From the IMG/VR virus record IMGVR_UViG_2834277561_000001, positions 58,688-122,687 of that record: 64,000 bases of DNA. One strand, given 5' to 3'. Shown piece after piece: positions 35,498 to 57,821 of this stretch. Each line of letters begins with the position of its first letter. The first letter of the stretch is position 1. The position numbers were made by a program, and so were the translations under genes. The notes under the pieces are model-generated. The model searched no databases. It had not been told where the DNA came from and saw nothing but the letters and a program-made list of their open reading frames with translations. This stretch comes from a virus. Its lineage: Duplodnaviria; Heunggongvirae; Uroviricota; Caudoviricetes.

Positions 35498-36145
35498 ATG
35501 AAAGAACACATTAATACGGAAGGATGTATTACTATTACAAAAGATGAAGCTATGAAAATGATTAATGATTTTAAAGGTGATTCAATTACGGTAAAAATTA
35601 TTCAAAATCAAAAAGAAACCAATAAGATTCCAGTGGGAGATGTAGAAATAGGGCAGACAATATGTAATGGAAAATATGTTGTAGTCGATAGATATACACA
35701 TGGAGATACCTGTATTGTAAGAAAAGGAACCATTACTCAGGATATTCGATTTGGTGAAACGAATAAATGGGGTGAATCAAATTTACGAAAGTATTTAAAC
35801 ACAGAGTATTTAAAAGAAATCATGGATGAATTTGGTGAAATTGAATTACATACGGTTGATATGTTGTCGATGGACGGAGATGACTCTTATGGAAAATGTA
35901 AAGATCTAGTTTCTGCAATGACTTTTGATCGTTGGCGGAAATACCATAAATACATCGGTAATGCGGATTGCATGGAATGGTTATCTACACCAAACCAAAC
36001 GGAAAAATCAAATGATACGCGCTATGTGCGGGTTGTCGACTCCGGTGGTTGCGTGAGCGGCGGCGGTTGCTACTGGTGCGGCTACGGTGTGCGTCCGTTT
36101 TTTATCTTGAAATCATCAATCTTAGTATCTGTAGATAAAGCATGA
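35498..36145 (+). CDS. DGR target protein 2 (remote); DUF6273/C-type-lectin-like C-terminus
   Basis: WGESNLRKYLN, SMDG..YGK, WLSTPNQT, and a C-terminal variable repeat ending GVRPFFILK. Confidence 0.88.
   Translation: MKEHINTEGCITITKDEAMKMINDFKGDSITVKIIQNQKETNKIPVGDVEIGQTICNGKYVVVDRYTHGDTCIVRKGTITQDIRFGETNKWGESNLRKYLNTEYLKEIMDEFGEIELHTVDMLSMDGDDSYGKCKDLVSAMTFDRWRKYHKYIGNADCMEWLSTPNQTEKSNDTRYVRVVDSGGCVSGGGCYWCGYGVRPFFILKSSILVSVDKA
36017..36099 (+). repeat. DGR variable repeat VR2
   Basis: 83-nt match to TR with 16 differences at TR adenines and one T->G difference. Confidence 0.93.
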
Positions 36146-37049
36146 AAGAATCGTTTCAAAGGAGTTTTGATATGAAGATATATGTATTGAAAGAATATAA
36201 CACGGATCGAATAGTCTGCATTTCGGAAAATATTCTACTAATTAAGAAACAATTATGCAATAAAGAATATTTTAGCACGGAATATTCAGATTATCCCATT
36301 ATGTCTGTATGGGATAATGGAATTCAAATTGAAAAATTTGAAGGAATGGATGTGCTTAGAAAAGTTGCAGAAGTTATAAACAATAACTAATGAAAGTCGG
36401 ATTTCGAGGTAAAAGGTATGACAAATTATAAAATAAAACATGGTGATATGGAACTGTGGTTGATTCTTGCAGCATTGGGGAAAGGGGAACAAAGAAAAAA
36501 TCCTGATGATTTTACAAGAAATCCGGATGGAAGCTTACCTGTAAAATTTGAAGTTGGAGGTGTTGAACTGGATTTTTCAAATGTTGCAAAAAGAATAGAA
36601 GATTCTATAGATTCGCTTGTGATGAACAAGGCACAACAATTATTAAACACTAAGTATTCGCGCCTAATTAATGAAATTGAGGATATTCAGAATCGGCTTG
36701 AAGATCAAAAAGCGACTTTATTTAAGTAGTGTGGGTATAATAAATATACTTAACGAAATTTCGGAGGTGATTATTGAAAAACAAAAAGTAGTTAAGTTGT
36801 TAAGAATGGAGGAATCATATATGCTTAAAATTGGTGATACAGTAAAGGTGATTAGAATTACAAATACTGGTGAATTAATTCCAATTGGTACGATATGTAC
36901 CGTTTTGGAAGTGAGGAAAGAATTAGACGGAAAATATTATTATGGAATTGGTGATAATAGATTTTATAGTAAGAGTGTAAACGGTTACTATTTAGAAAAT
37001 GAGTTAGAAAAAGGACATTTAGAATGGATAAAAGAATAGGAGAACAAAC

Positions 37050-38186
37050 ATGAATGGATTAGCGGTAAAAGATATAGAATTTAATGGAGCAACACTGAGA
37101 GCTGCACAGGATGCCGTCGGAAAAATTTGGGTTGGAGTTCGTTGGATATGTCAGGGAATGGGATTTGACGAAAATCGAATTGATAATGAACGTAAAAAAA
37201 TGCAAAAAGATATTGTGGTTTCTAAGGGAGTGAAATTTTACTCCCTTGGACAAGACCGTGCAAAATCAGATGTTCTTTGTATTGATCTTGATTATCTTCC
37301 TCTTTGGCTTGCAAAAATCTCCATTACTCCGACAATGCAGAAGGAAAATCCGGATCTTGTACAGAAACTTATTACATACCAGCTTAAAGCTAAAGATGTT
37401 TTAGCAGAAGCATTTCTTCCGAAGAAAGAAGAAATTGTTCCGGCACAATCGAATATGATTCAGCTGCAATTTCCTAACCTTCCGGATTACAGCGGAAATT
37501 TTCAGGAACTTAATGAAAAGATTAATAAGTTGTATTCCGACATGGGAAAACTTGCAAATCTTTTGATAGAGATGAAAGAAGGAAGCAAAATTTCTGTTGA
37601 TATTCCGAATTCAGTTAATCATGGAAATCTTCTGGAAGTGCTTGAACATTCCGCGATAACTGAATGGAAAAAGAAAATCTATTCCATGATTGACAGGCTT
37701 ATTGATGCCGGAAAATGCAAAGAACGTTCTGAATGTCTTCAATATATCTACAAGTATATGAATAAGAACTATGGTATTGTCTGGGATCAGGAAATGAAAG
37801 AATATGCTATTCAGAACGGAAAGAAACCATCTACAATAGATCTTACATATAATAATGAAACTTATCGTTCAATTTTCGAGTCAATTCTGGTTGATCTTGT
37901 GGAAAATAATACATCACAGGATGAAGAAATGGTATGTATGACGGACAAAATCATTACTCCACTGATTGCGAAATACAATGATAATAGTAATGCCGGATGT
38001 GCTACATATCGGCTCGTGTATGCCAGAATGGATAAGATTAAACCTATTTGTTGGAGTAATCGCGAGGCACGGTATATCAATAAACATGAAAAGAAAACCG
38101 CGACAAAGAAAAATATTATCAATGACAGCAAATCACTGATGAAAATTTTCAGGGCAGCAGTTAAGCAGATGTTGGAGGAAGAGTAA
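37050..38186 (+). CDS. Phage antirepressor, P22 Ant N-terminal-like domain
   Basis: IWVGVRWICQGMG...LCIDLDYLPLWLAKIS...YQLKAKDVLAEAF. Confidence 0.8.
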   Translation: MNGLAVKDIEFNGATLRAAQDAVGKIWVGVRWICQGMGFDENRIDNERKKMQKDIVVSKGVKFYSLGQDRAKSDVLCIDLDYLPLWLAKISITPTMQKENPDLVQKLITYQLKAKDVLAEAFLPKKEEIVPAQSNMIQLQFPNLPDYSGNFQELNEKINKLYSDMGKLANLLIEMKEGSKISVDIPNSVNHGNLLEVLEHSAITEWKKKIYSMIDRLIDAGKCKERSECLQYIYKYMNKNYGIVWDQEMKEYAIQNGKKPSTIDLTYNNETYRSIFESILVDLVENNTSQDEEMVCMTDKIITPLIAKYNDNSNAGCATYRLVYARMDKIKPICWSNREARYINKHEKKTATKKNIINDSKSLMKIFRAAVKQMLEEE

Positions 38187-41100
38187 GATGAGTCTGTATA
38201 CAAGAATGTTGAATAATGGGATTGTAATAAAAAATGCTCAAGATGCTCTTAATATTGCAATTAAAAATGGAGCATATGTTTATATCACTTTAGCTGACGG
38301 AACGGAAATTCATTTAGATCGACCAATACAAATTAATTCTATAGAAGCTACGGCATTGCATAGTGTCGCAGATGGATACTATAAAGCAGAACAGATTAAC
38401 TTAAATGAGTGACTTGTAATTACACATATGGTATAATGGAGGAAAAGAATATGGAAGTTATCAGTGCATTTGAAGTGAGAGGCAAAAGGTTTGTGACAGT
38501 GAAGAACGGAAATAACGTGCACTCAATGCCGGAAAAAGAATTTGCGTGGATTTTGTGCAACGAGAGAAAATATAATAGAGAAATGAAAACGGCAGCATAG
38601 CAATGAAATAATAGATTCATTTGAAAATTGGAGTTGAGAAATTATGAGAATATCTAAAGATATACAAGGAAAAATGCATAAATTAGCACAACTGACTTCA
38701 CAAGCAGCCATGCTTGATAGAGAAATCAATGATTATTTTGAAAGTAAAGGATATGATATTGATGAGCTTCGTAGTGGAGATGGAACAACGCTTGAAGAAT
38801 TAAATTATGGCAATGATATTACAAATACTTTTGTTAATGATTTTGCAAATGGAAAGTATGAATATTGTCGGGATATAGAGTAACAAGAAACCAAGTTTTC
38901 AAATGAAAAGAAAAGGAGATTAATATTATGAACAAAGAAAAACTATACGAGGAATCAAAAGAATTTGCGATTTTTTGCAATTACGGTGTTTTAGGAGCAG
39001 ACAAAAGAAACGTGTATACGTATGGATGTGAACATCCAAGAGGAACTTGTGCAGATGAAATAAAGGTAAAACTTCCAAAAAACAATTGTTTCCAGATTTA
39101 TGAAACAGCTATTGGAGATTTAGCTGTAGAATCTGTATGGGGTTGGCAATATAGTATTAATGATGTTTTACAGGGAAATGAAAAACCATGTTTTTATGCC
39201 ATTGATAAAGATGGAGATGGACATAGAGTTTATTTAGATGAAATTTAACTTTCATAACAGAGAATATTATATGTAGAAACTAATACAAATAATACGTACA
39301 GTTTCTACATATTTTTGATTAGAGGTGATACAATGTTAGAAGCAATAGAATTTAAAGCCGACAGGTTTAAAAAGGGAGATAATTATAATCTGATTGAATT
39401 TACCAAAAACACAGTTATTTTATGTAGTGACTACAAGCTTATGGATACATTAACGAAAGAAATAATCAATACTGTGAACGGCAAGGCAGAATATAACGAT
39501 TATTACTGTGACGATGAAGACGATGGAAATGCAAAATTAGACTTATGTTTTGGTTTGCAACGAATAATTGATATAAACGGACAGAAGATTACTGTTGGTC
39601 TTGAACCGGCAATTATTTATAAGGCAAACAAGCCGGAAGACATATGGCTTTTTGCTTGGCAAGGATGTGATGAGATTAAAACATTGCCGAAATATGAAGA
39701 ATATATTTATCCGATGCTGATATTCAAAGGAAGCAGAAAGACATGGGATGATGGTAAAGACGCTGTATATCAAACTATATGTAATGGTAGATATGGTTGT
39801 TACAATGGTAAATGGATTGATTTGCATGGAGATCATTATGATGAAGAAGTCCATAATTGTAACGGAAAATATAAATTGCATATATCAAGTAAATAGAGGT
39901 GATATAATATTGATAAAGTTAGTAAGAAAAGTGGAATGGGAATTACCTGAATCTCCTAAAACAGAAATGTATATGTATGGCGAAGCTGATTTTGAAGCAA
40001 AATAAAGCCATGCAAGAACCATTGGAAAAGCTATACCAGTATGATAATCAGCCTAATATGAGAAAAAAGATTAAGGAATATATTAGAGAGCTTGAAACGG
40101 AAATTAAAAGAATTGAAGATCATTTAGAGGAACGTATTTATCTTATCGAAAGAAATAAGATCGACATTTATGCCGTTGCCGATAAACTCTTCGAACTTTA
40201 TAATAAAGAGCTTCCAATACCATTAAACAAGCACACTTGCCATAGCTTTTTCGACAGGGTTAGAGCAAGACATATTTGCAAAGCTGTTATCTTGTTGGAT
40301 AATGAAGATGGATTAAGTAATTGGGATAATTGTGAAGCGGAATCATTGGAGGATGCTATAGATATGCTTGATGCTGGATATGGTATTTTACCATTGGTGG
40401 GGTGATTTTATGGAGCATATTAATTTGTTTGAAACAAAAACAGATGAGGAATTGTTAGTATTGTATAATCAATTTCTTGAAGTAGAGAAAACCGCTGGAT
40501 TTTCTGATGATAATGAACTTGGAAAAATTAAAAGAGAGTATGAAAATGATTTTGGTGCAAATACAGCATTAATGCTACAAATAGAACTGACACATACCAT
40601 AGCGGATAGATGGTACAAAAATAATTCAAATCAAAAGAAATATAGATATAAAGTATGACTTTATGCCGATGATTGTATGGAAGGATATATTAGGCTTACT
40701 CCAGAACAGGCAAAATTAGTCTCATTTGCAACTGATTTTAACAATTGGGATATAAGTCAGGATGGTTATTATTGTGGAAATTTTGAAATAGAAGAAAATA
40801 ATCCGATCAATATAGAAAATTTTGATGAGTTTTAATTTTTATCAGGAGAAAATAATATGTATAGCATAGAAGAGATCAAAGAAATTATTGATAATGCAGT
40901 ATTAGAAGAATGTAAAAATTATAATGATTCTTCATCAAGAGAATATATAGGTGTACAATCATTAAAAACAAGATTATATGATGCATTCGGACTTGAAGAT
41001 GATGATATTAGATCAATGAAGGTTAAAATCATTAAGGTTACTCCTGTTATCGAAGTAGTTTCACCTTGGTATAGAGATAAAATTGGAGAAATATATACTG

Positions 41101-41889
41101 TATCCAATAAAAAGGTTGATATGGGGTTAGAAATAGAAGGAATGTATTATCGTATTTTGGGTAAACAAACAAAATATTTAAGATGTTGTGATTGTGAGAT
41201 TGTAAATTGAATTTAATTTTTTGAAAAAAGGAAAATAAAAATGAAGTGGATAAGAAAACAGATAGCAGCATTAGTTCTTGGATTTCTTGATTCTGAAAAG
41301 GAATTAAGAAGCACACCAGTCGAAGTAATAAATGCGTTGAATATTGTTACGGAGTTTATTTCTACGAAATATTGGAAATATTTTTGATTTTAAAGTGAGG
41401 TATAAATGTACGAAAAAATATCTGATGAAATTATTAGACTTGAAAAAGTTAAAAAGTTAAAACAAAAAATATTATCGGAAATCAATGTAAGTCTAAATAG
41501 ATATAGAAATATGATATTTAAAAATCCCAATGATAAGAGTTGTGAATTTTTTATAAAACAAAGTTTTGTATTATTGAAACTGAAAGAATATATTGAATAT
41601 AAATATTCTTTTATGGATTATCAATATAGAAATATTGACAGAGATATTATTATATATACGATTTCTGATAAAGATTTAAACATATGGTCGCAGGAAGATT
41701 ATTCATTTGTAACTAGATTTTTAGTAGAATCTGAAAGAATTGATTATGATGTATCTCAGTTATTAAATGATAAGTATTTTGGATATAGTTTTACAGATAT
41801 ATCAGAAAGTATCTTGTATGATAAGAAACAAAATAAAACTGCATAATTAAAATGACGATTTCATTTGTTAAAAAGAGAATATATAAAAT

Positions 41890-42003
41890 GTGGGTGCATT
41901 TGCATAAGCTGGCGTTGCCCTGACGAGGGAAAACGAGTGCGAGTCTCGTAAATCGGAAACAAGCCGACAGAAGTAAGAACAGGTTCGAGTCCTGTCGCCC
42001 ACA
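41890..42003 (+). ncRNA. 114-nt tRNA-like RNA with no canonical anticodon arm
   Basis: 7-bp acceptor stem GTGGGTG/CGCCCAC plus A; perfect T arm ACAGG-TTCGAGT-CCTGT; enlarged middle with several hairpins. Confidence 0.7.
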
Positions 42004-43116
42004 TTTTTTAATTGGAGAGTTATATATATGTCGAGAATTGTATTGCAAAAGAAAGATAAACAACTCATAGATAGTATTTTCGAGCATCCTGATAATATTT
42101 TCAGTGTGCATTTTGCAGGATATGAAGATACTGTTTGGTGTAAATCTGTTTCGGAAATTTATATGGCATTAGAACAGTTTAAGAGAAATGGATTTGTGAA
42201 AACAGACGAAAATGTAGAATTAGTAGTATAAAAAGGGAATAAAATTATGAATAGAAAAAACAAAAATATAGATCACGAATTTTGTGATTATGATGAAGCT
42301 TACACCCGTGAGTCTGCAAGTGATATTGGATGGTGTGGTAAATGTAAAATTCCAGAATGTCCATATAATAAAGACTTAAATGAAAAGAAACGAATGGGTT
42401 GGAATTTATAATCCAAAGAAAGAAATTTTTGATTATATTTCAGAATCATCTGACGGTATGATTCTTGTGAGTGATTTAAGTATATCAGACGAATCGGTTG
42501 CTGACGATAGGATAAATTGGGAAGAAACACGTTATGTTTGTATTAAGCGTTTTGATGGGGATGAATATGATACTCCACAATGTATTGGAATGTGTTGCAT
42601 AGAAAATATTGATGAAATTTGATTTTCAGGAGAAAATAAATGGGATCGTATGCTATTGCTTATGCAGATAAAAATGGAAATGGATTTTCAAATGATGAAC
42701 CATGGATAGAAGCTGGATTTGAAAAAGATTTAGAGTTGTGCAAAAGAAGAGCTATAGAAATGGTGAAACATGGACTAAAAAAAGTTACAGTATTTAAGTT
42801 TGGTTCGCAATTATGTGACACTTATTCATGGAACTATATAAAAGAACACGTAGTTTGACTTGAGAGGGAATATGAATGATTCAATTAGATAAAATCAAAA
42901 AAATATAACTGAAATAGAAGAGCCAATGGAATTTGCAGGTTGCCTTGATGGAATAAGATTTGCGGCAACAGTGTATTGCAGAGAAAATTATCCAGACGAA
43001 GTGATTCGGGAAAATGGAAAAATAAAAGACATAACAATTTATGGTATGTGTCGCTATCTTGAAAGTAAAGCAGACTAAATGACAATTTTATGGTTATGGA
43101 AAGCAGGTGATACAAA

Positions 43117-43656
43117 GTGAAAATAACAAGATTTAAAGATATTCCTCAATTTACATCTAGTGGATCATATCAAGTGAATTATCCTCTTACAAGTCTTGTA
43201 AGAGAAATTGAAGAAGAAGTCAGTGAAATGGGATTGCAACTTAATCCAAAATTCCAAAGAGGGCATGTGTGGACTGAGGAACAGCAAATCGCATGGATTG
43301 AGTATCATTTACGTGGAGGTAAATCTGGAAATACAATTTATTTGAATAATCCATTTTGGAATTCCTATAGAGAACCGAAGCAAAATGAGTATTCTGATTA
43401 TGTATGTGTTGATGGATTACAAAGAATAACAGCAGCGCAAAGATTTGTTCATAATGAAATTAAAGTATTCGGTTCATATTTTAAAGAATATGAAGATAGA
43501 CTTAGACTTGCAAATGATGCGACAATGATTTTGAATGTAAATAATCTTAAAAGCGAAAAAGAAGTTCTTCAATGGTATATTGATATGAATGCTGGTGGAA
43601 CACCTCATACAAATGAAGAAATTGAACGAGTAAAACAGATGATTGAAGAGTTATAA
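43117..43656 (+). CDS. DUF262 domain protein (standalone)
   Basis: LNPKFQRGHVWTEEQQ...CVDGLQRIT...MNAGGTP. Confidence 0.82.
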   Translation: MKITRFKDIPQFTSSGSYQVNYPLTSLVREIEEEVSEMGLQLNPKFQRGHVWTEEQQIAWIEYHLRGGKSGNTIYLNNPFWNSYREPKQNEYSDYVCVDGLQRITAAQRFVHNEIKVFGSYFKEYEDRLRLANDATMILNVNNLKSEKEVLQWYIDMNAGGTPHTNEEIERVKQMIEEL

Positions 43657-45210
43657 TGTAAATGAAAAATTGCTTTCATAAGGAGGTATCATGATAGGAA
43701 CTTTTGATCTTAATTTTGAGAAGCAACTTATAAAAAATTATGCAGAAGAAACTTATGAATTTCTTATAGATAGAGCTGATTCAAGACAACTTGAGAAAGA
43801 TTTTGTTTTTCAAGAGTTTTTAAAACAACTTAATGCTTTGGCAAAGAAAAATGGAATTTTATAAATACATGGAATTGTTTTAGATAGGTAATTTATATGA
43901 CGTATGAAGAAATGCAAAAAATCAAACATTTACGAGAAGTAACTTTTGTTATGGTTGAAGAATCATCGAGTGGAATTGAATGTACTAAAAATAGATTTGG
44001 TAGCAGAACTATGGATGACTGCAAGAACGTTACTTTTGAAAAAATTGAATTAAAAAAAATTGATAATGACATTTTTCATATAAGAAAAGAATATTATGGT
44101 AGGAATCTATGGGTAATGTTATGAGATTAAGTTGTTTTTAATATAGAATGGAGTTGATTACGTGAAAAGAATTAAAATGAAAAATAATACAACAAAATTT
44201 GTATGGGACGGAGATAACTGCATAGATAAATATACAGAGTTTATAGAACAGTATTATTATGATTCAGAAAAAGAAAAGATGGAACATAAAAAAGAAATGG
44301 AATCAGATGGTTGGAATGATTCTGGTCAAGTTATGGAAATGATAAGCGGTTCTTTAATGCCAGGAGCTAAAAATCCTCCGGTGCATGTCTGGTTTGGAAG
44401 TTATTACAAAACAATTAGAGAATAAAATGAAAGATTGTTTTCAGGGAGTGATAATAATGACTGTTGAACAAGCTAACGGAAATTATAATTATATGTATGA
44501 ATTTAGGATTGATAAGTCCTGGTATCCATGCCATTTATTAAATGATTCTGTAGAAAACGAACACTGTATGATTTTTACTAGAAACGGATCAGTGATACAT
44601 GAACAATTACAGGACATTAGAAAGATGCGTAAAGAAGATTATTTACAGAACAGGAAAGAAGTTGTTGAATGGCTTGGAAAATGGGCTTATAATCATGGGA
44701 TTCATGAAAATGTACATGATGATTTGAAACTTTTTGATTCAGTAGATGATTTGATGAGAAGTTAAAACAGACATTTCGAAAGGAAAAATATGAACGAATA
44801 TATGAACGAACCCATAGAACGAATCTGGGTGCCGGAAGATGTTGTAAATACCTATAAGAAATTGCAGGATAAAGCAGCTGTGGCAAAAATTTTTTGCATT
44901 CCGGTAAAACAAGTGACGAAGATTTTGAACGATAACAAATAACGAAAGAGGTATTTCAATGGATATTTGTAAAACAAGAACTAAACTTAAACCCAAGGGA
45001 ACAAAAGAAAGTTTTATAGACGAGAAGAAGCATACTCATAGTTACGAGAGACGGATAGATGGAGTTGAATTATGGTTTGAACATGATGAAAATAATGAAA
45101 TAATCTATTTTCGCCGAAGATATAATAGATTGGAGGCAATATATGGAATTATTGATCATGATGATAAGTATACAGAAGAAGACTATATTCGCAATTAGAA
45201 AAAGAACCGC

Positions 45211-45483: not shown

Positions 45484-45563
45484 GCATTCTTTTGAATGCT
45501 TTTTTTATTAGAAAAATATAAACCAAATAGATTATAATATATACAAAAAGGTTTATTTTATGG

Positions 45564-45592: not shown

Positions 45593-45624
45593 ATAATTAA
45601 GTTAAGAGAAAGGAGATATAACAA

Positions 45625-47534: not shown

Positions 47535-48062
47535 TTACTTACCGCCTTTAGATGGATCAGGTTTTTCTTTTATGACATTTCGCCAGGATTGTTCATGCAT
47601 TTCTTCTTTTAAATTAGGGCGAACTGACATAAAACTTATTCCCATTTTTCTATCAATTTCCTGATTTACAATTTCGCAAATAATTTTATGAAGTTGACTT
47701 TGATCTTGTTCTTTTTTGGATTCTGTAGGAATAGAAACACTATTGTTAGTAGGTGAATCTTCTGTTTTAATTGTATAATTTTTTTGTTTTGCATTTTGTG
47801 CATGATATACCCGAATAATATTTTTCTGTTTTTTTAATGTATTATTTTCACTTTCAATTTTGATTTTATCAGAAATAAGAATATCATTAGGGGTACAATC
47901 AAAAATGGTGCATATTGCATCAAGGGTGTCAAGCCCAATGCGCGAAACAGTTCCATTATAAATATTTTCGGCAGGCTGATATCCTATGCCAATAGCTTTT
48001 GCAAATTGATTAATATTATCAAACTTAGCATCAACCAATTCTTTGACTTTAATTTTAAGCAT
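47535..48062 (-). CDS. XRE/Cro-C1 HTH repressor with C-terminal extension
   Basis: INQFAKAIGIGYQPAENIYNG...LDAICTIFDCTPNDIL; lone - strand gene, divergent from the mazF-like gene. Confidence 0.8.
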   Translation of the reverse strand: MLKIKVKELVDAKFDNINQFAKAIGIGYQPAENIYNGTVSRIGLDTLDAICTIFDCTPNDILISDKIKIESENNTLKKQKNIIRVYHAQNAKQKNYTIKTEDSPTNNSVSIPTESKKEQDQSQLHKIICEIVNQEIDRKMGISFMSVRPNLKEEMHEQSWRNVIKEKPDPSKGGK

Positions 48063-48131
48063 ATAATTACCTCCTACTGTTATACTATACTATAATTTTT
48101 ATAAAAAAGCAATTATACCTTAATACAACAC

Positions 48132-48160
48132 TTGACAATAACAGTAGACTGTAATATAAT
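48132..48160 (+). promoter_or_regulatory. Consensus SigA promoter with palindromic operator ACAGT-ag-ACTGT
   Basis: TTGACA(48132)-17 nt-TATAAT(48155). Confidence 0.85.
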
Positions 48161-48208
48161 ATGAAATATCAAAGGTAATACATAGAAAAATGAAAGGAGG
48201 AAGTACAT

Positions 48209-48595
48209 ATGGATCTTCACAGATATGATATAGTCGAGGCTGAAATTAAAATGACAACACCGTCTGGATCAGTACAGAAGAAAAGACGTCCATATGTAAT
48301 CGTAGGCAATGAGCAAGGAACCAAGACGGCTCCTACGGTTATTGCAATGCCTTTGACTCATATTATAAAAAGAACGAACCTTCCGGTTCACGGATGTATT
48401 AAGGCGGATGGTGATACTGGACTGGCTTATTATTCAATGGTGCTTGGTGAACAGCCTTATACGCTGGACAAACAATATGAAGTCAAAAGAAAGCTTGGTT
48501 CAGTAGTCGATATGAAACAGAAAAATCTAATTAATAAAATCTGTTGGAATACTATGTTTTATGGAGAAAATATAAACTGGGAGGCAATATTATGA
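48209..48595 (+). CDS. PemK/MazF-family endoribonuclease-like protein
   Basis: RYDIVEA..GSVQKKRRPYVIVGNEQG...PTVIAMPLT..S.VLGEQPYTLDK. Confidence 0.82.
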   Translation: MDLHRYDIVEAEIKMTTPSGSVQKKRRPYVIVGNEQGTKTAPTVIAMPLTHIIKRTNLPVHGCIKADGDTGLAYYSMVLGEQPYTLDKQYEVKRKLGSVVDMKQKNLINKICWNTMFYGENINWEAIL

Positions 48596-48907: not shown

Positions 48908-48958
48908 CAAACAAATGTTCGGTTTTTCGTTGACAAATACGAACACCTGGAATATACT
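48908..48958 (+). promoter_or_regulatory. LexA/DinR box and SigA promoter
   Basis: CAAAC-AAAT-GTTCG at 48908 (Firmicute consensus CGAAC-N4-GTTCG); TTGACA(48930)-17 nt-TATACT(48953), with a CGAAC half-site in the spacer. Confidence 0.7.
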
Positions 48959-49313
48959 TACAATATAAAAAAGAGAAGCTCCTACTCCGGTGCGGGAACA
49001 CCATAATGGAGTAGGAAACCTCTCAACACACATAACATAATCTCCCACGGGAATGGGAAGAAAATGCTACATATTTATATTACATAGATTTTCTTAAAAA
49101 ATCAAGTTTTTCGTAGCATTTCTGCTAAATTTTTCCAATAATAAATAATTTATATATGTGTTTAAGTTATTCGAGTTCAAGAATAACTTATTAAATTGCA
49201 CTAATTTTTGGAAGCATAGCTAAATTGGTGTGGGCAGATGTCTCATAAACATAAGGTTGTGAGCTCGAGTCTCTCTGCTTCCATTAACTAAATATAGAAA
49301 GGAATGATTTAAT

Positions 49314-49979
49314 GTGTACATAGTAACCGATGGCAAAAATTATGTCATGAAAGACCCTATTAATGCTGAACGATGGCTCGTTTCTACAAACATTAATCAT
49401 GCATATGTAGGATCGTTGAAACAGGCTAAACGTATTTTGAGAATGAAAAGATTCTCTCCATCGAAAGGTTTTCATATGGTTGATCATGATACTGGGAACA
49501 CTGTTCCAAAAGAAGTTGAGAATTATAGAGGCTCTGCTGGAGCATTTTTAGGTGAAAATGAGATTTCCCTTGATGACAAGATTTTGGATGAGATTTTCAG
49601 AGAAGCACGAGGAATTCTTGGACTTGCCGGATGGGATATGACTCAGTTGAATACGTATATGAATCAATTGAGTGCCAATTTAGCAAAATACGACTCTGCG
49701 ATTTCTGATATTGAGCATGTTTTACAGGAATATGAGTCAAAGCACGATGGAAGAAAACCTCCGGCAAATAAGGCAGCAAAATTAAGTTATTTACTTTTGG
49801 ATGTAAGAGGTAAGAGAGGGAGAATTAAACAGTGCCAGTGTTACATACGCGTTATGCAGGATGCGATAACAAACCATTATCCATTGGATAAACTTAAACT
49901 GGAATTGAGTAAAGTTACATACGTTGACTACAAGGGTAGAACTGAGTACTACAATTTGGCATTAAATATTTTGAATTAA
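49314..49979 (+). CDS. Hypothetical protein (coiled-coil-like C-terminal half)
   Basis: 221-aa ORF with AAAGGA SD. Confidence 0.7.
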   Translation: MYIVTDGKNYVMKDPINAERWLVSTNINHAYVGSLKQAKRILRMKRFSPSKGFHMVDHDTGNTVPKEVENYRGSAGAFLGENEISLDDKILDEIFREARGILGLAGWDMTQLNTYMNQLSANLAKYDSAISDIEHVLQEYESKHDGRKPPANKAAKLSYLLLDVRGKRGRIKQCQCYIRVMQDAITNHYPLDKLKLELSKVTYVDYKGRTEYYNLALNILN

Positions 49980-49982
49980 AAG

Positions 49983-52139
49983 GTGATTACGATGGATTGC
50001 AAAGAAAAACAAGAGAAAATTGAATATTATGCAGGAAACAATATGAGACATCTTAAAAAGCTTTGCGATCCAATCATCGCAAAGAAGTTTTTACCGGAAA
50101 TGTATAGAGATGATCTTTATAGTGACGCGCAAAAAGTATTGATGGAGAGTGTTGAATCATATAGAGATGATTCTGGTGTTGCTTTTAAAGATTATCTCAA
50201 AGGAAATATAAAAAATTCTTTTTGGGAATGGTCGCGTAATTCAATGGCACAAAAACGATGTAATGTCTTGCGTGATAAAAATGGAAAACCTGTAAAAGTA
50301 AAGGACGAAAATGGAAAGTTAAAAAAGATTATTATTCCAGATGTTAGATTAGATGCACCTGTAAATGAAGAAGATTCTCATAGCACAATAGGGGAATTAA
50401 CACCTTCCGGATTTGATATCAATAATGTAATTTCAGAACTTATAAAAGATGAAAATGTAGAATTATTTCTTGAATCATTATCTGATATTCAGAGAAGACT
50501 TCTTGAACTGAGAATGTCTGGAATGAATACTGAGTCAGTTAAAAGAGAATTGCATATTACAGAACATCAATATCAGGATAATATGACTGCGATTAGAGAA
50601 AATGAAATGATTTCTTTATTCAATAAAAAAAGAAAACGTATAGAAAATAAAATGGAGTACAAGGATATGGAAGAGAAAATAGTTTTTATGGATGATGATT
50701 GCATAATGGATTTGGATACAACTGATTCATATAGAATGGACAAGTATTCTCTTGAATCTCTGATTGCGGATAAACAGGAGGGAGAGTTGGATTGTGCGTA
50801 TGTTTCGCAACGAGTTCCATTTGCATGGACGGAAGAGCAGATCAATAAATACTTTACAAGAGTTCTCAATAATCAGCCTATTACAGAGATGGTTATATGT
50901 GAAATGGTGATTCCTGGTGCTGGTGGAGGAAAAATTTCATATCTCATTGATGGATTGCAGCGATTATCATATGCCGAGGCTTTTAAAGAAAACAGAATTC
51001 CAATTAAAGCAAAAGGGGCTGAATTTACAAAAGTTTATTATAAGAAATTTGAGTACGATGAAAATGGTAACAAAGTTCTCGATGAATACAGAAGAGCAAA
51101 ATATTCAATAGAAGTATTTAATCTGATTGGTAAATATTATAAAGATCTTCCGGAATTTTTGCAAAAGCGTTTCGATAAATTCAATGTAAATGTGACTAGA
51201 TATTTTGATTGTACTCCTGAGATGATTGATTATCATTTGCGTAACTATAACAACCATGTTGCTATGAGTAAAAATCAGTATGGCATCACGTGCATTTCAA
51301 ATGATGCCGCAACAAAAATTAAGAAATTGTCTCAGAAACATGCGTTTTTTAAAGACAATATCAAATGCACGAATAAGAGTCGAAAAACAGGAGTGCTTGA
51401 AGAAGTAGTCGTAAGATCAATGATGTGTCTATATTTTATGGATGATTGGAAAAAAGATGCCACAGACGCATATAAATTCATTGATGAAAACGCAACAGAC
51501 GAGCAGTTTTCTTATTTACATAAGTTACTTGATGATATGCACGAGGTTTGTGGAGAAGAAGAAAAAGCACTTCTTACAACAACTAATACATATACATGGG
51601 TAAAAGTTTTTGATAATTTTTCAAAGCTTGGAATTGAGAATGGCAGATTTATAGAATTTATGAAAGCATTTGGAACGACATTACATAGTAAAGAAATTAA
51701 CGGTCGTTCATATGATGAGGTAAGTACTAGAAATACAAAAGATAAGATAACTGTCAATAATAAAGTAGAAGTAATTACAGATCTTATGCGTGAATATTTT
51801 GGAGAATCTATCATTGTAGACGAATCTATTACTGAAGAAGAACTTTCTGATTTTGAGTTTGTAAAAGAAAATGTTTCTGATGATGTAAATGAGGAAGATT
51901 TTGAGTTCTACAAAGACATGGTAGATGATTCTGTTAAATGTGATACTCCATTATACGAGAAATGTACTCCGGCATTAATCGCATTAATGGCAATTGCGTG
52001 TCAAGAAGAAAAGGATACTGAATTTGAATCCTGGGCTGGTAAATATGCAAAGGACAATATCACATTCAGTCCGAGTCAGAAAGTCAACTTCATGTATATG
52101 AAGAATGATTTCGAAAAATACTGTCAGTCGGCAGTGTGA
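49983..52139 (+). CDS. Sigma70-like (regions 2-4) domain fused to a DUF262 domain
   Basis: DDLYSDAQKVLMESVESYRDDSGVAFKDY, RLDAPV and LSDIQRRLLELR..; then SQRVPFAWT, LIDGLQRLS and RNYNN. Confidence 0.75.
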   Translation: MITMDCKEKQEKIEYYAGNNMRHLKKLCDPIIAKKFLPEMYRDDLYSDAQKVLMESVESYRDDSGVAFKDYLKGNIKNSFWEWSRNSMAQKRCNVLRDKNGKPVKVKDENGKLKKIIIPDVRLDAPVNEEDSHSTIGELTPSGFDINNVISELIKDENVELFLESLSDIQRRLLELRMSGMNTESVKRELHITEHQYQDNMTAIRENEMISLFNKKRKRIENKMEYKDMEEKIVFMDDDCIMDLDTTDSYRMDKYSLESLIADKQEGELDCAYVSQRVPFAWTEEQINKYFTRVLNNQPITEMVICEMVIPGAGGGKISYLIDGLQRLSYAEAFKENRIPIKAKGAEFTKVYYKKFEYDENGNKVLDEYRRAKYSIEVFNLIGKYYKDLPEFLQKRFDKFNVNVTRYFDCTPEMIDYHLRNYNNHVAMSKNQYGITCISNDAATKIKKLSQKHAFFKDNIKCTNKSRKTGVLEEVVVRSMMCLYFMDDWKKDATDAYKFIDENATDEQFSYLHKLLDDMHEVCGEEEKALLTTTNTYTWVKVFDNFSKLGIENGRFIEFMKAFGTTLHSKEINGRSYDEVSTRNTKDKITVNNKVEVITDLMREYFGESIIVDESITEEELSDFEFVKENVSDDVNEEDFEFYKDMVDDSVKCDTPLYEKCTPALIALMAIACQEEKDTEFESWAGKYAKDNITFSPSQKVNFMYMKNDFEKYCQSAV

Positions 52140-52269
52140 AAATTATTAGGGATTTCCCGATTACATAAATAAAAAATATATATTTTTGGAGGAATAACAA
52201 ATGGATATTTGAAAAAGAACCAGTAAAAGCAGAACAGGCATATCTGGAAGCCATGAAGGAGAACGTATC

Positions 52270-52614
52270 ATGATCACAGATGATGAAGTAGGTAAATACA
52301 AAAAGAAAGCTGACTCGAATATATCAAAATCAAAGGCAAAATCGAAACATAAACATATATACAAGTCTTGTTTGATTACTGGAAGTTTCGGTAACACAAA
52401 TTTGCAACATGTATCTATTGCGTCATATTGTACTATTTGTGGAAAAATTGGCGGGAATATTGATCCGACGCGAGACGTTGTAGAACATGTTTCAGGCAAG
52501 CATCTTAGAATGCTTAGTAAAGAAGAAATTCTTGAGCAGAATAAAGATCTTGAAATATTTGATATTGGTAATATGTTTGCTAAATATGTACCGTTAAATA
52601 AGGAGGAAAAATAA
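52270..52614 (+). CDS. Hypothetical protein
   Basis: HKHIY..C..CTICGK; SD present. Confidence 0.6.
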   Translation: MITDDEVGKYKKKADSNISKSKAKSKHKHIYKSCLITGSFGNTNLQHVSIASYCTICGKIGGNIDPTRDVVEHVSGKHLRMLSKEEILEQNKDLEIFDIGNMFAKYVPLNKEEK

Positions 52615-52759
52615 TATGGGAATCACATGTAAGCAGTTTGGAAAAGTAAGAGGAATGATGCAACGAGTTGAGAATGAGAAGACAAAGAAACACAATGAAG
52701 CTGTGAAGAAAAAGTCAAAAGACAAGAAATGATGAAACCGTAGTTTCATTGGGATTTTA

Positions 52760-52829
52760 ATACTACATATTGTGGGGGTTACTCATATATATATACAATA
52801 TATAGTGTTTACAAATCTATATATTGTGG
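52760..52829. promoter_or_regulatory. Three NrdR-box-like 16-bp palindromes
   Basis: ATACTACATATTGTGG (52760), ATACAATATATAGTGT (52793) and AATCTATATATTGTGG (52814), versus consensus aCaCwAtATaTwGtgt. Confidence 0.55.
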
Positions 52830-53062
52830 CAATGGAACAGCTAGGAACTTGTTTGGCGACAACCTAGCTGCTCCGATTAAAATATAGGATAAACTATATT
52901 TGTTCTTAGTATAACAAATCTATTTGGCTTATTCAAGTCGAGTTTATCCCATTCATGTATTCCAAAAGAGGAATCAATTGGATAGTGGGTGTGGGTTTCA
53001 TCCGTTGAACTTAAAGCTTCAAAAATACTATATAAAATTTCATGGTTGAATACATATTTGAG

Positions 53063-53323
53063 GTTTAGGAAATATGTGATTTTACATGGTAGTAAACCTC
53101 AACAGATACATTACTGTCTTTATTTAACGTTTGAGAGCTATGTTGTTTTACATGGTAGTAAACCTCCATAGATGATTTTAATTCAGATGAACTGGCTGAT
53201 TATACTTCTGCATTGGAATACGTTTGAGAACTATGTTGTTTTACATGGTAGTAAACCTAGAGAAAATTCTAAATCAACAAATAGGCTGTTTGAGAACTAT
53301 GTTGTTTTATATGGAAGCAAACT
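53063..53323 (+). CRISPR. CRISPR mini-array: four 36-bp repeats, spacers of 30, 57 and 30 nt
   Basis: Repeats at 53063, 53129, 53222 and 53288; consensus GTTTGAGAACTATGTTGTTTTACATGGTAGTAAACC resembles type II-A repeats; no cas1/cas2/cas9 in the window. Confidence 0.9.
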
Positions 53324-53425
53324 TTAAATGTATGTGTTTTTGTAATGCCTCTGTTTAAGACTTACGTGATTATGTATAGCATTGAACCAAAATCATTTAT
53401 AAAAAATGAATGGAAGGACTTTTTT

Positions 53426-54688
53426 GTGAAAGTACAAAGAGCTGAGAAACATAGAATAAAGAAAAATAATAAATTTTATTTGTTAATAGATGATTTTTGT
53501 TGGAAATCTAAAAATATGTATAATTATGGAAATTACATTATTCGACAGGAATTTATTTCAACATCTAAATTGAAAGAAGAAGGATTTGCCGAACATGCAA
53601 ATTGGATTCAATACAATGCATTATATCAAATATGCAAAAGTTCAGACTCATATGTTGCACTTGGAAGCATAGCGGCACAGGCAACATTACGAAAATTAGA
53701 AAAAAATTGGAAATCATTTTTTGAATCAATAAAAGATTACCAGATTCATCCTGAAAAATATCAAGGAAGACCTAAAATTCCAAAGTATTTAGATAAAGAA
53801 AAAGGAAGATATGAATTAGGTATTAATAATCAACGGTGCAAAATCAAAGATGGATATGTATATTTTGGTTGGAAGCCATTGCGTTGTTTGAATGGAATTT
53901 TTAAATCTAAAATTCCAGATGATGCGAAATTAATTCAATGCAGATTTGTCCCAAAAAAGGATGAATATGTTCTGGAAGTTGTATACGAAATAAGTCTTCT
54001 AAATATTAATAAGAAGAAGTCACAAAATATTGCAGCTATTGATTTAGGTGTTGATAATTTAATCACTCTTACAACCAATTGTGGTACACAACCAATAGTG
54101 ATTAATGGAAAACCACTTAAAGCAATTAATCAATATTACAATAAGGTGATTTCAGATATGAGATCGGATTTAAAATTACGAAATGATATGAATTGGTCAC
54201 ATAAAATGCAAAAAATTACCACAAAAAGGAACTATAAAGTGGAAGATTACATACATAAAGCAACTAAAATAGTAATTGATTTTCTTAAAGATAATGATAT
54301 CGATACATTGGTATGTGGATACAATACAGGATGGAAACAAGAAACGAATATCGGAAAAATAAATAATCAAAATTTTGTATATATTCCTCATTCGTCGATC
54401 ATAGAGAAACTATCTTACAAATGTGAGAACGAAGGTATTTTATTTAAAACAACAGAAGAAGGATATACAAGTGGCACTTCTTTTCTTGATGAAGAAGATC
54501 CTTGTGAGGAAAATTATGATAAAAGCAGACGTAAATATCGAGGATTATTCATTTCAAACAATGGCATACCTATCAATGCTGACGTGAATGGAAGTTATCA
54601 GATTATGAAAAAGGTATTTCCAAATGCGTTTAAAAATGGAGTAGAAAATGCAATTTTACATCCTATAGTAGTTAATATTCCAGCATAA
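53426..54688 (+). CDS. tnpB: TnpB/Cas12-like RuvC nuclease adjacent to the CRISPR array (likely GTG start at 53426; track start 53345)
   Basis: AAIDLGVDN (RuvC-I), VCGYN..WKQ with displaced Glu in TEEGYTS, NADVNGS (RuvC-III); no zinc finger; GGAAGGA SD before GTG. Confidence 0.88.
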   Translation: MKVQRAEKHRIKKNNKFYLLIDDFCWKSKNMYNYGNYIIRQEFISTSKLKEEGFAEHANWIQYNALYQICKSSDSYVALGSIAAQATLRKLEKNWKSFFESIKDYQIHPEKYQGRPKIPKYLDKEKGRYELGINNQRCKIKDGYVYFGWKPLRCLNGIFKSKIPDDAKLIQCRFVPKKDEYVLEVVYEISLLNINKKKSQNIAAIDLGVDNLITLTTNCGTQPIVINGKPLKAINQYYNKVISDMRSDLKLRNDMNWSHKMQKITTKRNYKVEDYIHKATKIVIDFLKDNDIDTLVCGYNTGWKQETNIGKINNQNFVYIPHSSIIEKLSYKCENEGILFKTTEEGYTSGTSFLDEEDPCEENYDKSRRKYRGLFISNNGIPINADVNGSYQIMKKVFPNAFKNGVENAILHPIVVNIPA

Positions 54689-54736
54689 ATGGTGTTTAAA
54701 AATAACGATGAAACTCACATTTCAGAGGGGATTTTT

Positions 54737-55401
54737 ATGGAAGCATGGATTTTACAAGGTTTTGCAATAATTGGCTTTGCTATAACAATTGGACTTATGT
54801 TTATTCTGTTCTATATCGTTATGTGTAAAGTCAATATTTTGTTTAACAAGTATTATAAATTACAAAAGATAAAGAGAGAAAGCAAAAATAGGTTTCGACA
54901 ACCACCTGTAGCAAAATGTTACTGTCTCTATTGCAAATATGCAGAATATTTCGGAGATGACAGATGTGGTAAATGTAGCCTATGGGGAAATGATATTGTA
55001 ATCAAGGATAACGGCTTTTGTTATAGAGCTGATCCTAAAAAATAAAGATGAAATGATTGTTTCACGGTGTGATTAAAAGAAAGATAAAAGGAATAGTAAT
55101 GAATAAGAATATATCAGTAAATGTAAAAGCATGTCAGATGTTGGATGTAGAAATAACCCCAGATGAATTACTAAAAGGAATTATTAATGTTTGTCAACTA
55201 GATTATTTATTTTCTTCAACGAAAGATGTTTATTGGAGACTTGAAAAATGCGGAAAAACAGAGGTTCTAAATCAATATGTTAATTTTTCATTAAATTCAC
55301 AGCATCCTGAATTTGAAGTGTTTCGTACTATTTCTGATAAAGAAATCGTTGCGATTTATAAATGTATAAACAAACTTAAAGAATTTATTAATGTAAAATA
55401 A
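54737..55401 (+). CDS. Two hypothetical ORFs (54737-55045, membrane anchor plus Cys cluster; ~55099-55401)
   Basis: Hydrophobic N-terminus and CYCLYC..C..C motif in the first; both co-oriented. Confidence 0.6.
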
Positions 55402-55418
55402 AAAGGAGAGAGAAAAAT

Positions 55419-56192
55419 ATGGGCAAATTTAAATCAGGAATTATTTTAAAAAACAAAATTGAGTTAGCACCACAGGGGAATGAAAGTTACTCGGATTTAC
55501 TTGTTTCGCTCGGCATTGATGATACTACATTCAACGCTTCTAAAGTATTCATTAGAGCTGAATTAACTCCGCCAGATGGTGATATTGCAGTGCCAATTGA
55601 GAAATGGAATTACAATGTTGATCAGGATATTACTCCGGATTGGTACGATGAAGATCCAACAAGATATGAAAATGAATTTCGTGTTGCGGTAGATACTTGG
55701 ATTAAAGAAAATCTGAATTTCAAAAAAGAATTTGGAAAAGCATGGACTGTTTTTGAAGATAATGGATTGGAATATCATGTTCTTTATGGAACTTTGTTTA
55801 ATTCTGAGTTTGGAGCTACAAATGATTATAGAGAATCATTTATCCGCAAAAAATTAGATGAAAGCGAATTAAAAGCTCAAATTGAAGATACATATAAAGA
55901 AAGAATCGTTCCTGTATCAGTAAATCTTACATCTATGGATGGATTTAAAGAATACGGAAAAGTGTCTGATACTCTTGGAATTTTTGATATTCCGTTTCTT
56001 ATGAAATATGGCGAGAATATTCCACTTATTGAAAATCCAGTTTGGACAGCAACCCCAAATCAGACAAAAAAACGTAGAGATACGCGCTTTGTGCAGGTTG
56101 TCATCTCCGATGGTTTCGTGTGCTGCAGCGGTTGCCTCTGGGGCGGCTGCGGTGTGCGTCCGTTTTTTATCCTGAAATCTTCTAATCTCTAA
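55419..56192 (+). CDS. DGR target protein 1; distinct N-terminal domain plus DUF6273/C-type-lectin-like C-terminus
   Basis: SMDG.KEYGK, WTATPNQT, and a variable repeat ending GVRPFFILK. Confidence 0.9.
   Translation: MGKFKSGIILKNKIELAPQGNESYSDLLVSLGIDDTTFNASKVFIRAELTPPDGDIAVPIEKWNYNVDQDITPDWYDEDPTRYENEFRVAVDTWIKENLNFKKEFGKAWTVFEDNGLEYHVLYGTLFNSEFGATNDYRESFIRKKLDESELKAQIEDTYKERIVPVSVNLTSMDGFKEYGKVSDTLGIFDIPFLMKYGENIPLIENPVWTATPNQTKKRRDTRFVQVVISDGFVCCSGCLWGGCGVRPFFILKSSNL
56082..56164 (+). repeat. DGR variable repeat VR1
   Basis: 83-nt match to TR with 17 differences, all at TR adenines. Confidence 0.95.
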
Positions 56193-56206
56193 TCTTAATA
56201 AATATT

Positions 56207-56560
56207 ATGAAACTAATTGATAAAACCATAGATCTTATGGAATATACATACAGAGAGACAAGTAGAAAAGATCGATTCCCAATCAAATATCGTACTATAA
56301 TTTTTGAAATGCAAACAAACTCTCTTAATATTTATAAAATGCTTTTAACTGCAAATAAACTTCCGATTTGTGGAAATGGATCAGAACGACAGCTGCTACA
56401 ATTAAAAGCGGTGGCATTATGCGATGATTTGTCCGGGCTAATTGAATTGGCAAATAAATTGAAAATAATCAGTATTGATAAAATGGGGAAATGGCAAGCT
56501 TATTTGACTCCTGTAAAAAATATGATTTTGGCATGGATAAAATCAGATTCAAAAAGATAA
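56207..56560 (+). CDS. avd: DGR accessory variability determinant (four-helix bundle)
   Basis: 117 aa, located between target and TR; FPIKYR..., LIELANKLKIIS..KMGKW..MILAW. Confidence 0.85.
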   Translation: MKLIDKTIDLMEYTYRETSRKDRFPIKYRTIIFEMQTNSLNIYKMLLTANKLPICGNGSERQLLQLKAVALCDDLSGLIELANKLKIISIDKMGKWQAYLTPVKNMILAWIKSDSKR

Positions 56561-56583
56561 GATTCTAGGGTGTCTGCTGTTTG

Positions 56584-56666
56584 ACGCGCTATGTGCAGAT
56601 TGTCAACTCCAATGGTAACGTGAACTACAACGATTGCAACTGGAACGACTACGGTGTGCGTCCGTT
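56584..56666 (+). ncRNA. DGR template repeat (TR)
   Basis: AAC-rich copy ACGCGCTATGTGCAGATTGTCAACTCCAATGGTAACGTGAACTACAACGATTGCAACTGGAACGACTACGGTGTGCGTCCGTT; its 3' flank differs from the shared VR flank. Confidence 0.95.
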
Positions 56667-56777
56667 CTGGGGTGAAAAATGCAGAAAAGTACGTATTTAT
56701 ATACTGAAATCAGAGTCTCACCATCAAAAGAGCAAATATCCTTTCTTACCACAAGATAAAAATAAAGGAATACAAAA

Positions 56778-57821
56778 ATGGAAGATTATAGTTTTGAGTC
56801 TGTTTCTAATTTTGAAGCACTATATAAAGCATATCGTAAATCCAGAAAAGGATCGGGACATAAAAAGAGTAAATATAAATTTGCTCAAACTGCTTTGTAT
56901 GGTGTTTCAATGCTTAAATATCAATTGAATTCTAAGAAATATTTCATTGACAGATATAACAAATTTAAAGTTTATGAGCCGAAAGAAAGAGAAATTGCTG
57001 CCGGAAGTTTTAAGGATAAAATTGTGCAACATTCATTGTGTGATAACTACCTTTTACCGTATTTGTCTCATCATTTTATAGAGAATAATTTTGCCGGACA
57101 AATTGGCAAAGGAACTCATTTCGGATTAAAAGTTTTGGAACAGCATATGCTAAGTGCTTATTCAGAATATGGGATGAACTGTTGGATTGTAAAGTGTGAT
57201 GTTAGAAAATATTTCTATAATATTGATCACGACATTCTTAAGGATATTATAGAATTTCATTTTTCAGATTCTGATATTCTCTGGTTATGTAAAAAGTATA
57301 TAGATAGTGCAGAAAGTCCAGGACTTCCTTTAGGTAATCAAGTTAGCCAGGTGTTTGCGTTATTATATTTGTCGGGGTTGGATCAATTCATAACAGGGGA
57401 ATTAGGCGCTAAGTATTATGGAAGATACATGGACGATTTTTATATTATTGTACGGTCAAAAACACACGCGAAAGACTGCTTAGAATACATTAATACATTT
57501 GTTCAATCATTAAATATTGAGTTAAATGAAAAGAGTCAGATTATTCCGTTCAAAAATGGTATTCGATTTTGTGGTTTTCATACTTATATAACCAGTAGTG
57601 GTATTCCAATTCGAAAATTAACTAATGAGAAAAAGAGAAAAGGAAAGAAGAAATATATAAAAATGGCAAAGCTGGTTAATGAAGGAAAAATTAGCAAAAA
57701 GGATTTTGAAACTTCGTATTCTTCATTTAGAAATCATTTGTCATTTGGGAATTGTGTGAAATTTAGTTATAAATTGGACAAAGAAATATCTGAAGTGTTG
57801 GATAAGGAAGGAACAGAATGA
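56778..57821 (+). CDS. DGR reverse transcriptase
   Basis: EPKEREI, FKDKIVQH, GKGTH, KCDVRKYFYNIDH, GLPLGNQVSQ and YGRYMDDF motifs. Confidence 0.95.
   Translation: MEDYSFESVSNFEALYKAYRKSRKGSGHKKSKYKFAQTALYGVSMLKYQLNSKKYFIDRYNKFKVYEPKEREIAAGSFKDKIVQHSLCDNYLLPYLSHHFIENNFAGQIGKGTHFGLKVLEQHMLSAYSEYGMNCWIVKCDVRKYFYNIDHDILKDIIEFHFSDSDILWLCKKYIDSAESPGLPLGNQVSQVFALLYLSGLDQFITGELGAKYYGRYMDDFYIIVRSKTHAKDCLEYINTFVQSLNIELNEKSQIIPFKNGIRFCGFHTYITSSGIPIRKLTNEKKRKGKKKYIKMAKLVNEGKISKKDFETSYSSFRNHLSFGNCVKFSYKLDKEISEVLDKEGTE

Follow-up and report, generated by a model that had tools for sequence, protein, structure and literature searches.

A Single Diversity-Generating Retroelement of a Gut Clostridia Phage Diversifies Two Lectin-Fold Proteins That May Act Inside the Cell

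One Retroelement Serving Two Targets

The window analysed here, a stretch of 64,000 nucleotides, corresponds to bases 58688-122687 of the 201,430-bp virus record IMGVR_UViG_2834277561_000001, which is classed as a provirus and belongs to a temperate gut Clostridia phage of 201 kb. It carries a diversity-generating retroelement (DGR) composed of an avd-like accessory gene, a template repeat (TR) and a reverse transcriptase (RT) gene, and this single DGR serves two independently mutagenised targets: target 1, which is the one adjacent to the RT cassette, and target 2, whose gene lies about 20 kb upstream. Both proteins are predicted to end in a C-type-lectin fold and, with a modest preference, they are read here as soluble binders that would work inside the infected or lysogenic cell. 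Apart from DGRs, no natural system of targeted protein hypermutation is known in prokaryotes or in the viruses that infect them; in phages, DGRs have been explained almost entirely as switches of tail-fibre tropism.

All the elements of the system are on the plus strand. The cassette extends over 55419-57821 in the order target 1 (55419-56192; 257 aa), avd-like gene (56207-56560; 117 aa), TR (56584-56666), a TR-RT spacer defined by position only (56667-56777), and RT (56778-57821; 347 aa), while the gene of target 2 (215 aa) is located at 35498-36145. A repeat search and an alignment identified three in-register copies of 83 nt, namely TR and the variable repeats (VRs) VR1 (56082-56164; codons 222-249 of target 1) and VR2 (36017-36099; codons 174-201 of target 2). 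TR and VR1 differ at 17 of the 83 positions, all of them TR adenines (10 A>G, 6 A>T, and 1 A>C), and TR and VR2 differ at 16 adenines and at a single further site, a T>G at 36059; given the 22 adenines in the 83 nt of TR, the chance probability is 1.3e-13 for 17 out of 17 mismatches at adenines and 2.2e-11 for at least 16 out of 17. Between VR1 and VR2 there are 13 differences. The seven AAY codons of TR fall within TRYVQIVNSNGNVNYNDCNWNDYGVRPF, and the residues encoded at these codons are different in VR1 and VR2.

The homology of TR to the VRs stops at ...GTCCGTT; beyond this point both VRs read TTTTATC(C/T)TGAAATC, in the VR-specific 3' flanks at 56165-56181 (VR1) and 36100-36116 (VR2), and TR is followed instead by CTGGGGTGAAAAATGC. 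These flanks resemble a boundary of the initiation of mutagenic homing (IMH) or IMH* type, with a putative role in homing; the common flank is also explicable by shared coding alone because the same bases encode a conserved strand, FFILKSS. No stable hairpin was found 3' of either VR (folding z 0.12 and -0.96), and no significant fold in the TR-RT spacer, which is presumed to be part of the DGR RNA by analogy with the DGR of phage BPP-1.

The RT gene is the only one in the whole genome. Its product matches RVT_1 (E 2.7e-15), contains the motifs LGNQVSQ and YMDD, and has as best solved relative 8ub7_A (E 2e-27), a 328-aa chain deposited as 'Reverse transcriptase', which we take to be the BPP-1 enzyme and which ranked above retron and group II intron RTs. 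The 117-aa avd-like protein aligned over its full length with Pfam bAvd (E 3e-4, 21.7 bits vs. a cut-off of 40) and with NCBIfam DivGenRetAVD (E 4.5e-5, 23.7 bits vs. a cut-off of 80), in both cases with a score under the threshold; its size also fits Avd and the position of the gene is kept in 37 related cassettes. A scan masked at TR adenines and run on both strands of the whole 201-kb genome returned only TR, VR1, and VR2, without any third VR, so that the description in terms of two VRs is complete, as regards the search for more VRs that an earlier note on this DNA had proposed. That note, made from the letters alone, had already given the order and coordinates of the cassette, the numbers and kinds of mismatches, and the flank shared by the VRs and lacking in TR, all of which agree with the alignment; likewise, the substitutions that distinguish VR1 from VR2 bear out the independent mutagenesis that it claimed, and folding confirmed that no strong hairpin follows either VR.

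Continuing Diversification of the Targets

VR2 has been rewritten recently and is active. The mouse-gut metagenome contig X6 covers positions 35588-36600 (1013 nt) and shows ten differences, all located at 36030-36081 inside VR2; nine of them are at TR adenines and the tenth is the odd T>G site, at which X6 carries the T of TR. The probability that 10 out of 10 differences fall in 83 of 1013 nt is ~1e-11. Database proteins sharing 83-96 % identity with either target vary chiefly at the VR codons, where as many as nine different residues occur in one column. Moreover, in the 36 related viral contigs that an alignment query showed to carry this cassette (target 1, avd, TR, RT), adenines account for 515 out of 527 TR/VR mismatches.

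The distance of 20 kb from the cassette and the one non-adenine change could suggest that the variable domain around VR2 is a frozen duplicate which the DGR has ceased to rewrite, and population variation at VR2 had been indicated in the earlier note as the relevant check. This variation is present in X6, which is identical elsewhere and differs only inside VR2, at TR adenines in nine cases out of ten; in addition, homologues vary mainly at VR2 codons and VR2 has the same 3' boundary as VR1. The frozen duplicate, which has a very low probability, is therefore rejected on the basis of X6, of the variation of homologues at VR codons, and of the adenine mismatches in related cassettes.

Sequencing runs containing the DGR stretch derive from bovine, pig, and mouse gut and from wastewater, in addition to one isolate assembly. 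In the latter (run X1), which holds a diverged relative, contigs break at VR2 (window 36014-36164) and one short contig joins VR2-like sequence to the upstream flank of VR1, as commonly happens when assemblies collapse at DGR repeats; ~224 nt 3' of VR2 are replaced by 199 other letters. The raw-read runs X21 and X22, from the same study as the isolate holding a relative, gave no reads on the stretch, the phage not being in these runs.

Fold and Relatives of the Target Proteins

AlphaFold2 (AF2) models of the two targets are confident, with a predicted local distance difference test (pLDDT) score of 91 for target 1 and 87.6 for target 2, and both predict a terminal DUF6273/C-type-lectin fold in which the VR occupies the C-terminal end of the domain. 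Target 1 is made up of an N-terminal module (aa 1-100) and a DUF6273-type domain with C-type-lectin fold (aa 100-257), and target 2 consists of a single domain of this kind preceded by a short N-terminal extension, in part modelled with low confidence. PHROG 9958 matches both proteins (E 6e-30 over residues 59-213 of target 2), and target 2 exceeds the cut-off of Pfam DUF6273 (PF19789; 32.7 bits vs. 23.5). The best structural match of target 2 in the PDB is 9qa6, followed by lectin folds; weaker fold matches include the C-terminal domain of Legionella Lcl, the Treponema DGR protein TvpA, and many C-type lectins. The N-termini are unrelated, since residues 1-100 of target 1 have no counterpart in target 2. 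The comparison and the models thus uphold what the earlier note had stated about the two proteins, i.e., their lengths, their common variable domain, and their different N-termini, and the structure prediction that it had suggested places both VRs in the same predicted fold.

No hydrophobic stretch fitting a signal peptide or a membrane helix was detected in the two proteins (maximum Kyte-Doolittle means over 19 residues of 1.45 and 1.20), and no beta-prism, immunoglobulin (Ig)-like, or fibre-like attachment domain is seen in either AF2 model. Among the ESM Atlas matches of the lectin half of target 1 there are phage clusters whose proteins combine DUF6273 with MazG, dUTPase, or DUF3310. These fusion clusters have 71, 68, and 144 members, respectively, and DUF6273 is annotated on only 13 % of the members of the dUTPase cluster.

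In total the phage encodes four small DUF6273 proteins, two of which are diversified. The other two are tandem paralogues of 201 aa at positions 137435-138040 and 138037-138642 of the genome, outside the window; they were considered as extra or decayed VRs and rejected for their lack of similarity to TR.

A Widespread N-Terminal Module in Target 1

The new element here is that the first ~100 residues of target 1, encoded at 55419-55718 and delimited by homologue alignment and profile search, are a separately conserved, unnamed, and widespread module, as judged from its homologues. Its consensus includes MC..S, SH, VR.E..PP, and W.Y.VDQD..P.WY, and its profile retrieves 2145 clusters at E <= 0.001 among 1.8 billion representatives. 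Among the 150 clusters listed, the module is at or near the N-terminus in all 150 and begins with MC in 134, and the C-terminal parts are tandem repeats in 87 cases (mostly of period 8 or 9), lectin-type ends with G[VI]RP in 9, short in 13, and unclear in 41; the two module members tested have true pentapeptide repeats (PF00805, PF01469). A profile search of the PDB with the module gave only chance-level matches (ClCdnE, E 0.099; RoqN, E 1.5), fold searches in AFDB and in the ESM Atlas covered residues 1-100 of target 1 only with unnamed homologues, and the Atlas feature search for the module reached 0.83, a score too low to be useful.

In nine further viral contigs the module is fused to non-lectin parts, mostly tails of tandem repeats of 8-15 residues. 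The three non-DGR members with a usable context belong to small temperate phages and are placed directly downstream of integrase/recombinase and CI/Cro-like or helix-turn-helix (HTH) genes and upstream of recombination and replication genes (RusA, IstB-like, Sak, Phage_rep_org_N); going by gene order, this is the position of early host-takeover genes. In the viral contigs L063, L064, and L065, with genes starting at 3579 or 8001, the module is followed by repeats of the GGTVQ(E/K)VW type in near-identical proteins of 226, 293, and 228 aa, respectively; these differences in repeat number suggest that expansion and contraction may be a second way of varying the C-terminal half.

Genome Organisation and Neighbouring Genes

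The whole record has an estimated CheckV completeness of 100 % and a G+C content of 33 %. Its minus-strand block (genome ~4-57 kb) encodes terminase, portal, tape-measure, tail, and endolysin proteins, and a long plus-strand block of mostly small genes extends from ~82 kb to the end of the genome. The target genes belong to the plus strand, at 94 and 114 kb, i.e., 37 and 57 kb away from the minus-strand structural module. Target homologues are present in Blautia and Konateibacter genomes. A megablast of window positions 35-58 kb against GenBank phages gave, outside the DGR, a single short match only, and scans for promoters and terminators gave no more than shuffled sequence would, those for promoters being uninformative.

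The earlier note had located the targets among early genes, and their neighbours are in fact of anti-defence, regulatory, and defence type in a plus-strand block of early type. Target 2 is preceded by a sliding-clamp-like gene and followed by a P22-type anti-repressor (Ant); in the same block there are an AcrIC5-like gene (25876-26088) and a Lar-like restriction-alleviation gene (27986-28204), and the order small-gene array, target 2, Ant is kept around homologues that are 41 % and 84 % identical. Upstream of the cassette are an integrase-like gene, an HTH/PemK-toxin pair (47535-48595), a GmrSD_N-like gene of 718 aa (49983-52139), and TnpB. Around a 53 % identical homologue of target 1, the cassette is flanked by HD-CE, HTH/PemK, GmrSD_N, Thg1, N6/N4 methyltransferase, and RlaP genes. 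None of these listed neighbours is structural. Overall, genes of similar kinds surround homologues with 41-54 % identity.

Four direct repeats of ~53 nt, with start spacings of 66, 93, and 66, are found at 53055-53332 of the window, and directly 3' of them (53345-54688) lies the gene of a 447-aa protein with a match to the family of RNA-guided TnpB proteins. The gene at 54689-55045, the second one upstream of target 1, encodes a 118-aa product with one strongly hydrophobic segment (19-residue Kyte-Doolittle mean of 2.63 at residue 27) and a Cys-rich C-terminus; the 53 % identical cassette likewise has a 118-aa gene two genes upstream of target 1, with no sequence similarity detected between the two 118-aa genes. 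On the minus strand of the window, two transposase/TnpB-type paralogues of PHROG 506 (8316-9422, E 1e-136; 17165-18283, E 4e-126) are 8846 nt apart in DNA segments that are 70-77 % identical. On the same strand, two open reading frames (11616-12605 and 13585-15429) match positions 2-550 and 551-845 of PHROG 8308, which indicates one gene probably split by an intervening sequence of ~1 kb.

Comparison with Known Systems

The DGR of BPP-1 has the same order of target, avd, TR, and RT (mtd-avd-TR-brt), the same adenine-specific transfer from TR to VR, and a VR at the C-terminus of a C-type-lectin fold. It differs in having one target, a trimeric protein of the tail-fibre tip, and a GC-rich IMH with a downstream hairpin; in contrast, the phage described here has two targets, none of them in the virion module, and no hairpin was found. 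More generally, targets of the Mtd-like or tail-fibre kind are encoded in the structural module and have an N-terminal fibre-attachment domain, two features that were not found for the targets of this phage.

Closer parallels exist in gut phages. In Toutatisvirus one DGR has two DUF6273 targets, the second of which is 17,480 nt from TR (10.1101/2024.10.15.618418), and the phages nd4 and nd12 possess targets, nd4_tgt2 and nd12_tgt2, that are essentially a DUF6273 domain (Baykov et al. 2023, PMC10743442). These systems share with the present one a single DGR for two DUF6273 proteins, and their small tgt2 type resembles target 2, which by description can be likened to nd4_tgt2 for its single globular DUF6273 domain, short flanks, and VR at the 3' end. 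Their other target is instead Hoc-like or a tentaclin with Ig-like domains, whereas here neither target has Ig-like domains and target 1 bears a different, unnamed N-terminal module; furthermore, in tentaclins the C-lec domain comes first, the VR is close to the 5' end, and Ig-like domains follow (PMC10743442), while here the lectin fold and VR are C-terminal. In the Faecalibacterium phages Lelie and CP11, a large DUF6273 target is paired with a small one, with the VR lying C-terminally in DUF6273 and a function stated to be unknown (PMC11792537); these are other phages, of other hosts, and lack an N-terminal module like that of target 1.

As regards the location of the targets, the temperate Roseburia phage Shimadzu, which infects Lachnospiraceae, has its VR2 in orf43, a gene of unknown function, and both its VR1 and VR2 were diversified in culture and in mice (Cornuault et al., 10.1101/575076); the VR1 of Shimadzu is in a tail gene adjoining the RT, unlike the present case in which the RT-adjacent target is non-structural too. 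In Quimbyvirus, the DGR target ORF84 is encoded away from the structural module, in a region of genes for defence and counter-defence, and a non-structural role in phage-host conflict was proposed for it (Benler et al. 2021, PMC8008677); however, the genome of this Bacteroides phage is ~75 kb, its RT is frameshifted, its other target lies beside the tail fibres, and the target families are different. Second VRs far from the cassette have long been known, and publications already describe such remote targets, DUF6273 targets, and a non-structural DGR target in a phage (10.1101/575076; PMC8008677; PMC10743442; 10.1101/2024.10.15.618418; PMC11792537), and the novelty implied by the earlier note was overstated. 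What is distinct here is the absence of any target in or near the virion module, together with the presence, in the target adjoining the RT, of an early-gene module that is very widespread and uncharacterised.

Site of Action of the Diversified Proteins

The earlier note had proposed that the targets are hypervariable intracellular binders. Action as soluble proteins in the infected or lysogenic cell is favoured because of the strand of their genes, their distance from the virion module, their conserved neighbours of early and conflict type, and the fact that both halves of target 1 have fusion partners of cytoplasmic type elsewhere; the position, the conserved neighbourhoods, the family of the N-terminal module, and the DUF6273 fusions have strengthened the proposal, which is held as somewhat probable. 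The lack of a signal peptide, used in the same note as an argument for a non-virion role, was borne out as an observation and carries no weight as an argument, because virion proteins do not have signal peptides either.

Several observations weigh against an intracellular role. In large phages, genes of virion accessories may be located away from the main structural block, and the plus-strand block may contain late promoters. Target 2 weakly matches a Hoc-like PHROG across the VR, and the neighbours of the targets in BFVD include proteins labelled receptor-binding, tail, or DUF6273. With regard to the N-terminal module, no Pfam, PHROG, or NCBIfam model covers it in target 1 and no known fold or activity could be assigned to it; in addition, the copy of target 1 has a Gly at position 2 in place of the Cys2 found in ~90 % of homologues, which weakens the speculation that Cys2, His24, and the VDQD motif might form a catalytic site. 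Finally, tail fibres, tentaclins, and Hoc-like decoration proteins account for many of the DGR targets with DUF6273 or C-type-lectin domains (PMC10743442, PMC11792537, PMC8144416).

These observations are in part those expected if the targets were accessory adhesins associated with the virion, as decoration or fibre-tip proteins encoded off the structural module that track ligands of the host surface or of gut mucus in the manner of Mtd, tentaclins, and Hoc-like targets. The variable domain does belong to the same fold family as known receptor-binding DGR targets, the BFVD labels and the Hoc-like match of target 2 are consistent with such a function, and a role like that of receptor-binding proteins has been assumed by the authors who described small DUF6273 targets (PMC10743442; 10.1101/2024.10.15.618418). 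On the other hand, the target genes are on the opposite strand and 37-57 kb off the virion module, their early-type neighbourhood is conserved, the models show no fibre-like, Ig-like, or beta-prism attachment domain, the family of the N-terminal module of target 1 is found in early operons, and in Shimadzu the remote VR2 is under weaker selection than the tail VR1 (10.1101/575076); adhesins of this kind are accordingly considered rather unlikely, although they are the more credible of the extracellular alternatives. The C-type-lectin fold and the failure to find a membrane anchor would also suit soluble lectin-like factors that, released at lysis or exported by an unrecognised route, bind cell-wall glycans, free receptors, or mucus outside the virion, and the closest solved domain, named DUF6273 by its depositors, comes from a secreted, cell-wall-anchored IgA protease (PMC12402451). 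Nevertheless, no signal peptide was found in the targets, no precedent was found in the publications consulted, and the fusion partners of both modules elsewhere are of cytoplasmic type (MazG, dUTPase, pentapeptide repeats), so that release from the cell appears improbable.

The DGR, through avd, TR, and RT, copies the 83-nt template with adenine-specific errors and the mutated copy is written into two genes, one adjoining the cassette and the other 20 kb upstream; the rewritten codons fall in the DUF6273-type C-type-lectin fold that is predicted to end each target. If the targets do act inside the cell, they could serve as adaptable binders in conflicts between phage and host or between phages. 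In target 1, recognition would fall to the hypervariable lectin fold, and the constant N-terminal module would act as effector or adaptor; candidate roles are the inhibition of host defences, the sensing of rival elements on behalf of the prophage, and the adaptation of some phage enzyme. A broader proposal, put forward tentatively and with less assurance than the intracellular location itself, is that phages use DGRs for cytoplasmic recognition proteins as well as for receptor binders and that target 1 may be a two-part weapon or sensor, whose constant module, coupled in other proteins to beta-solenoid-like or pentapeptide repeats, is retargeted by the hypervariable lectin fold to changing proteins of host defence or of rival phages; this would be a phage-encoded, antibody-like adaptive system operating inside the cell.

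Biological Significance

The cassette is well defined and widespread, and here every one of its targets is surrounded by genes of early, anti-defence, or defence type; one of them, target 1, has a constant module in common with thousands of early phage proteins. Should the targets prove to be virion decorations, the system would be an ordinary two-target DGR. Whether phages evolve intracellular binders on demand is a directly testable question, as relatives exist in cultured isolates. If they do, the targets would be natural scaffolds for programmable intracellular binders and would add a new layer to the arms race between phages and their hosts.

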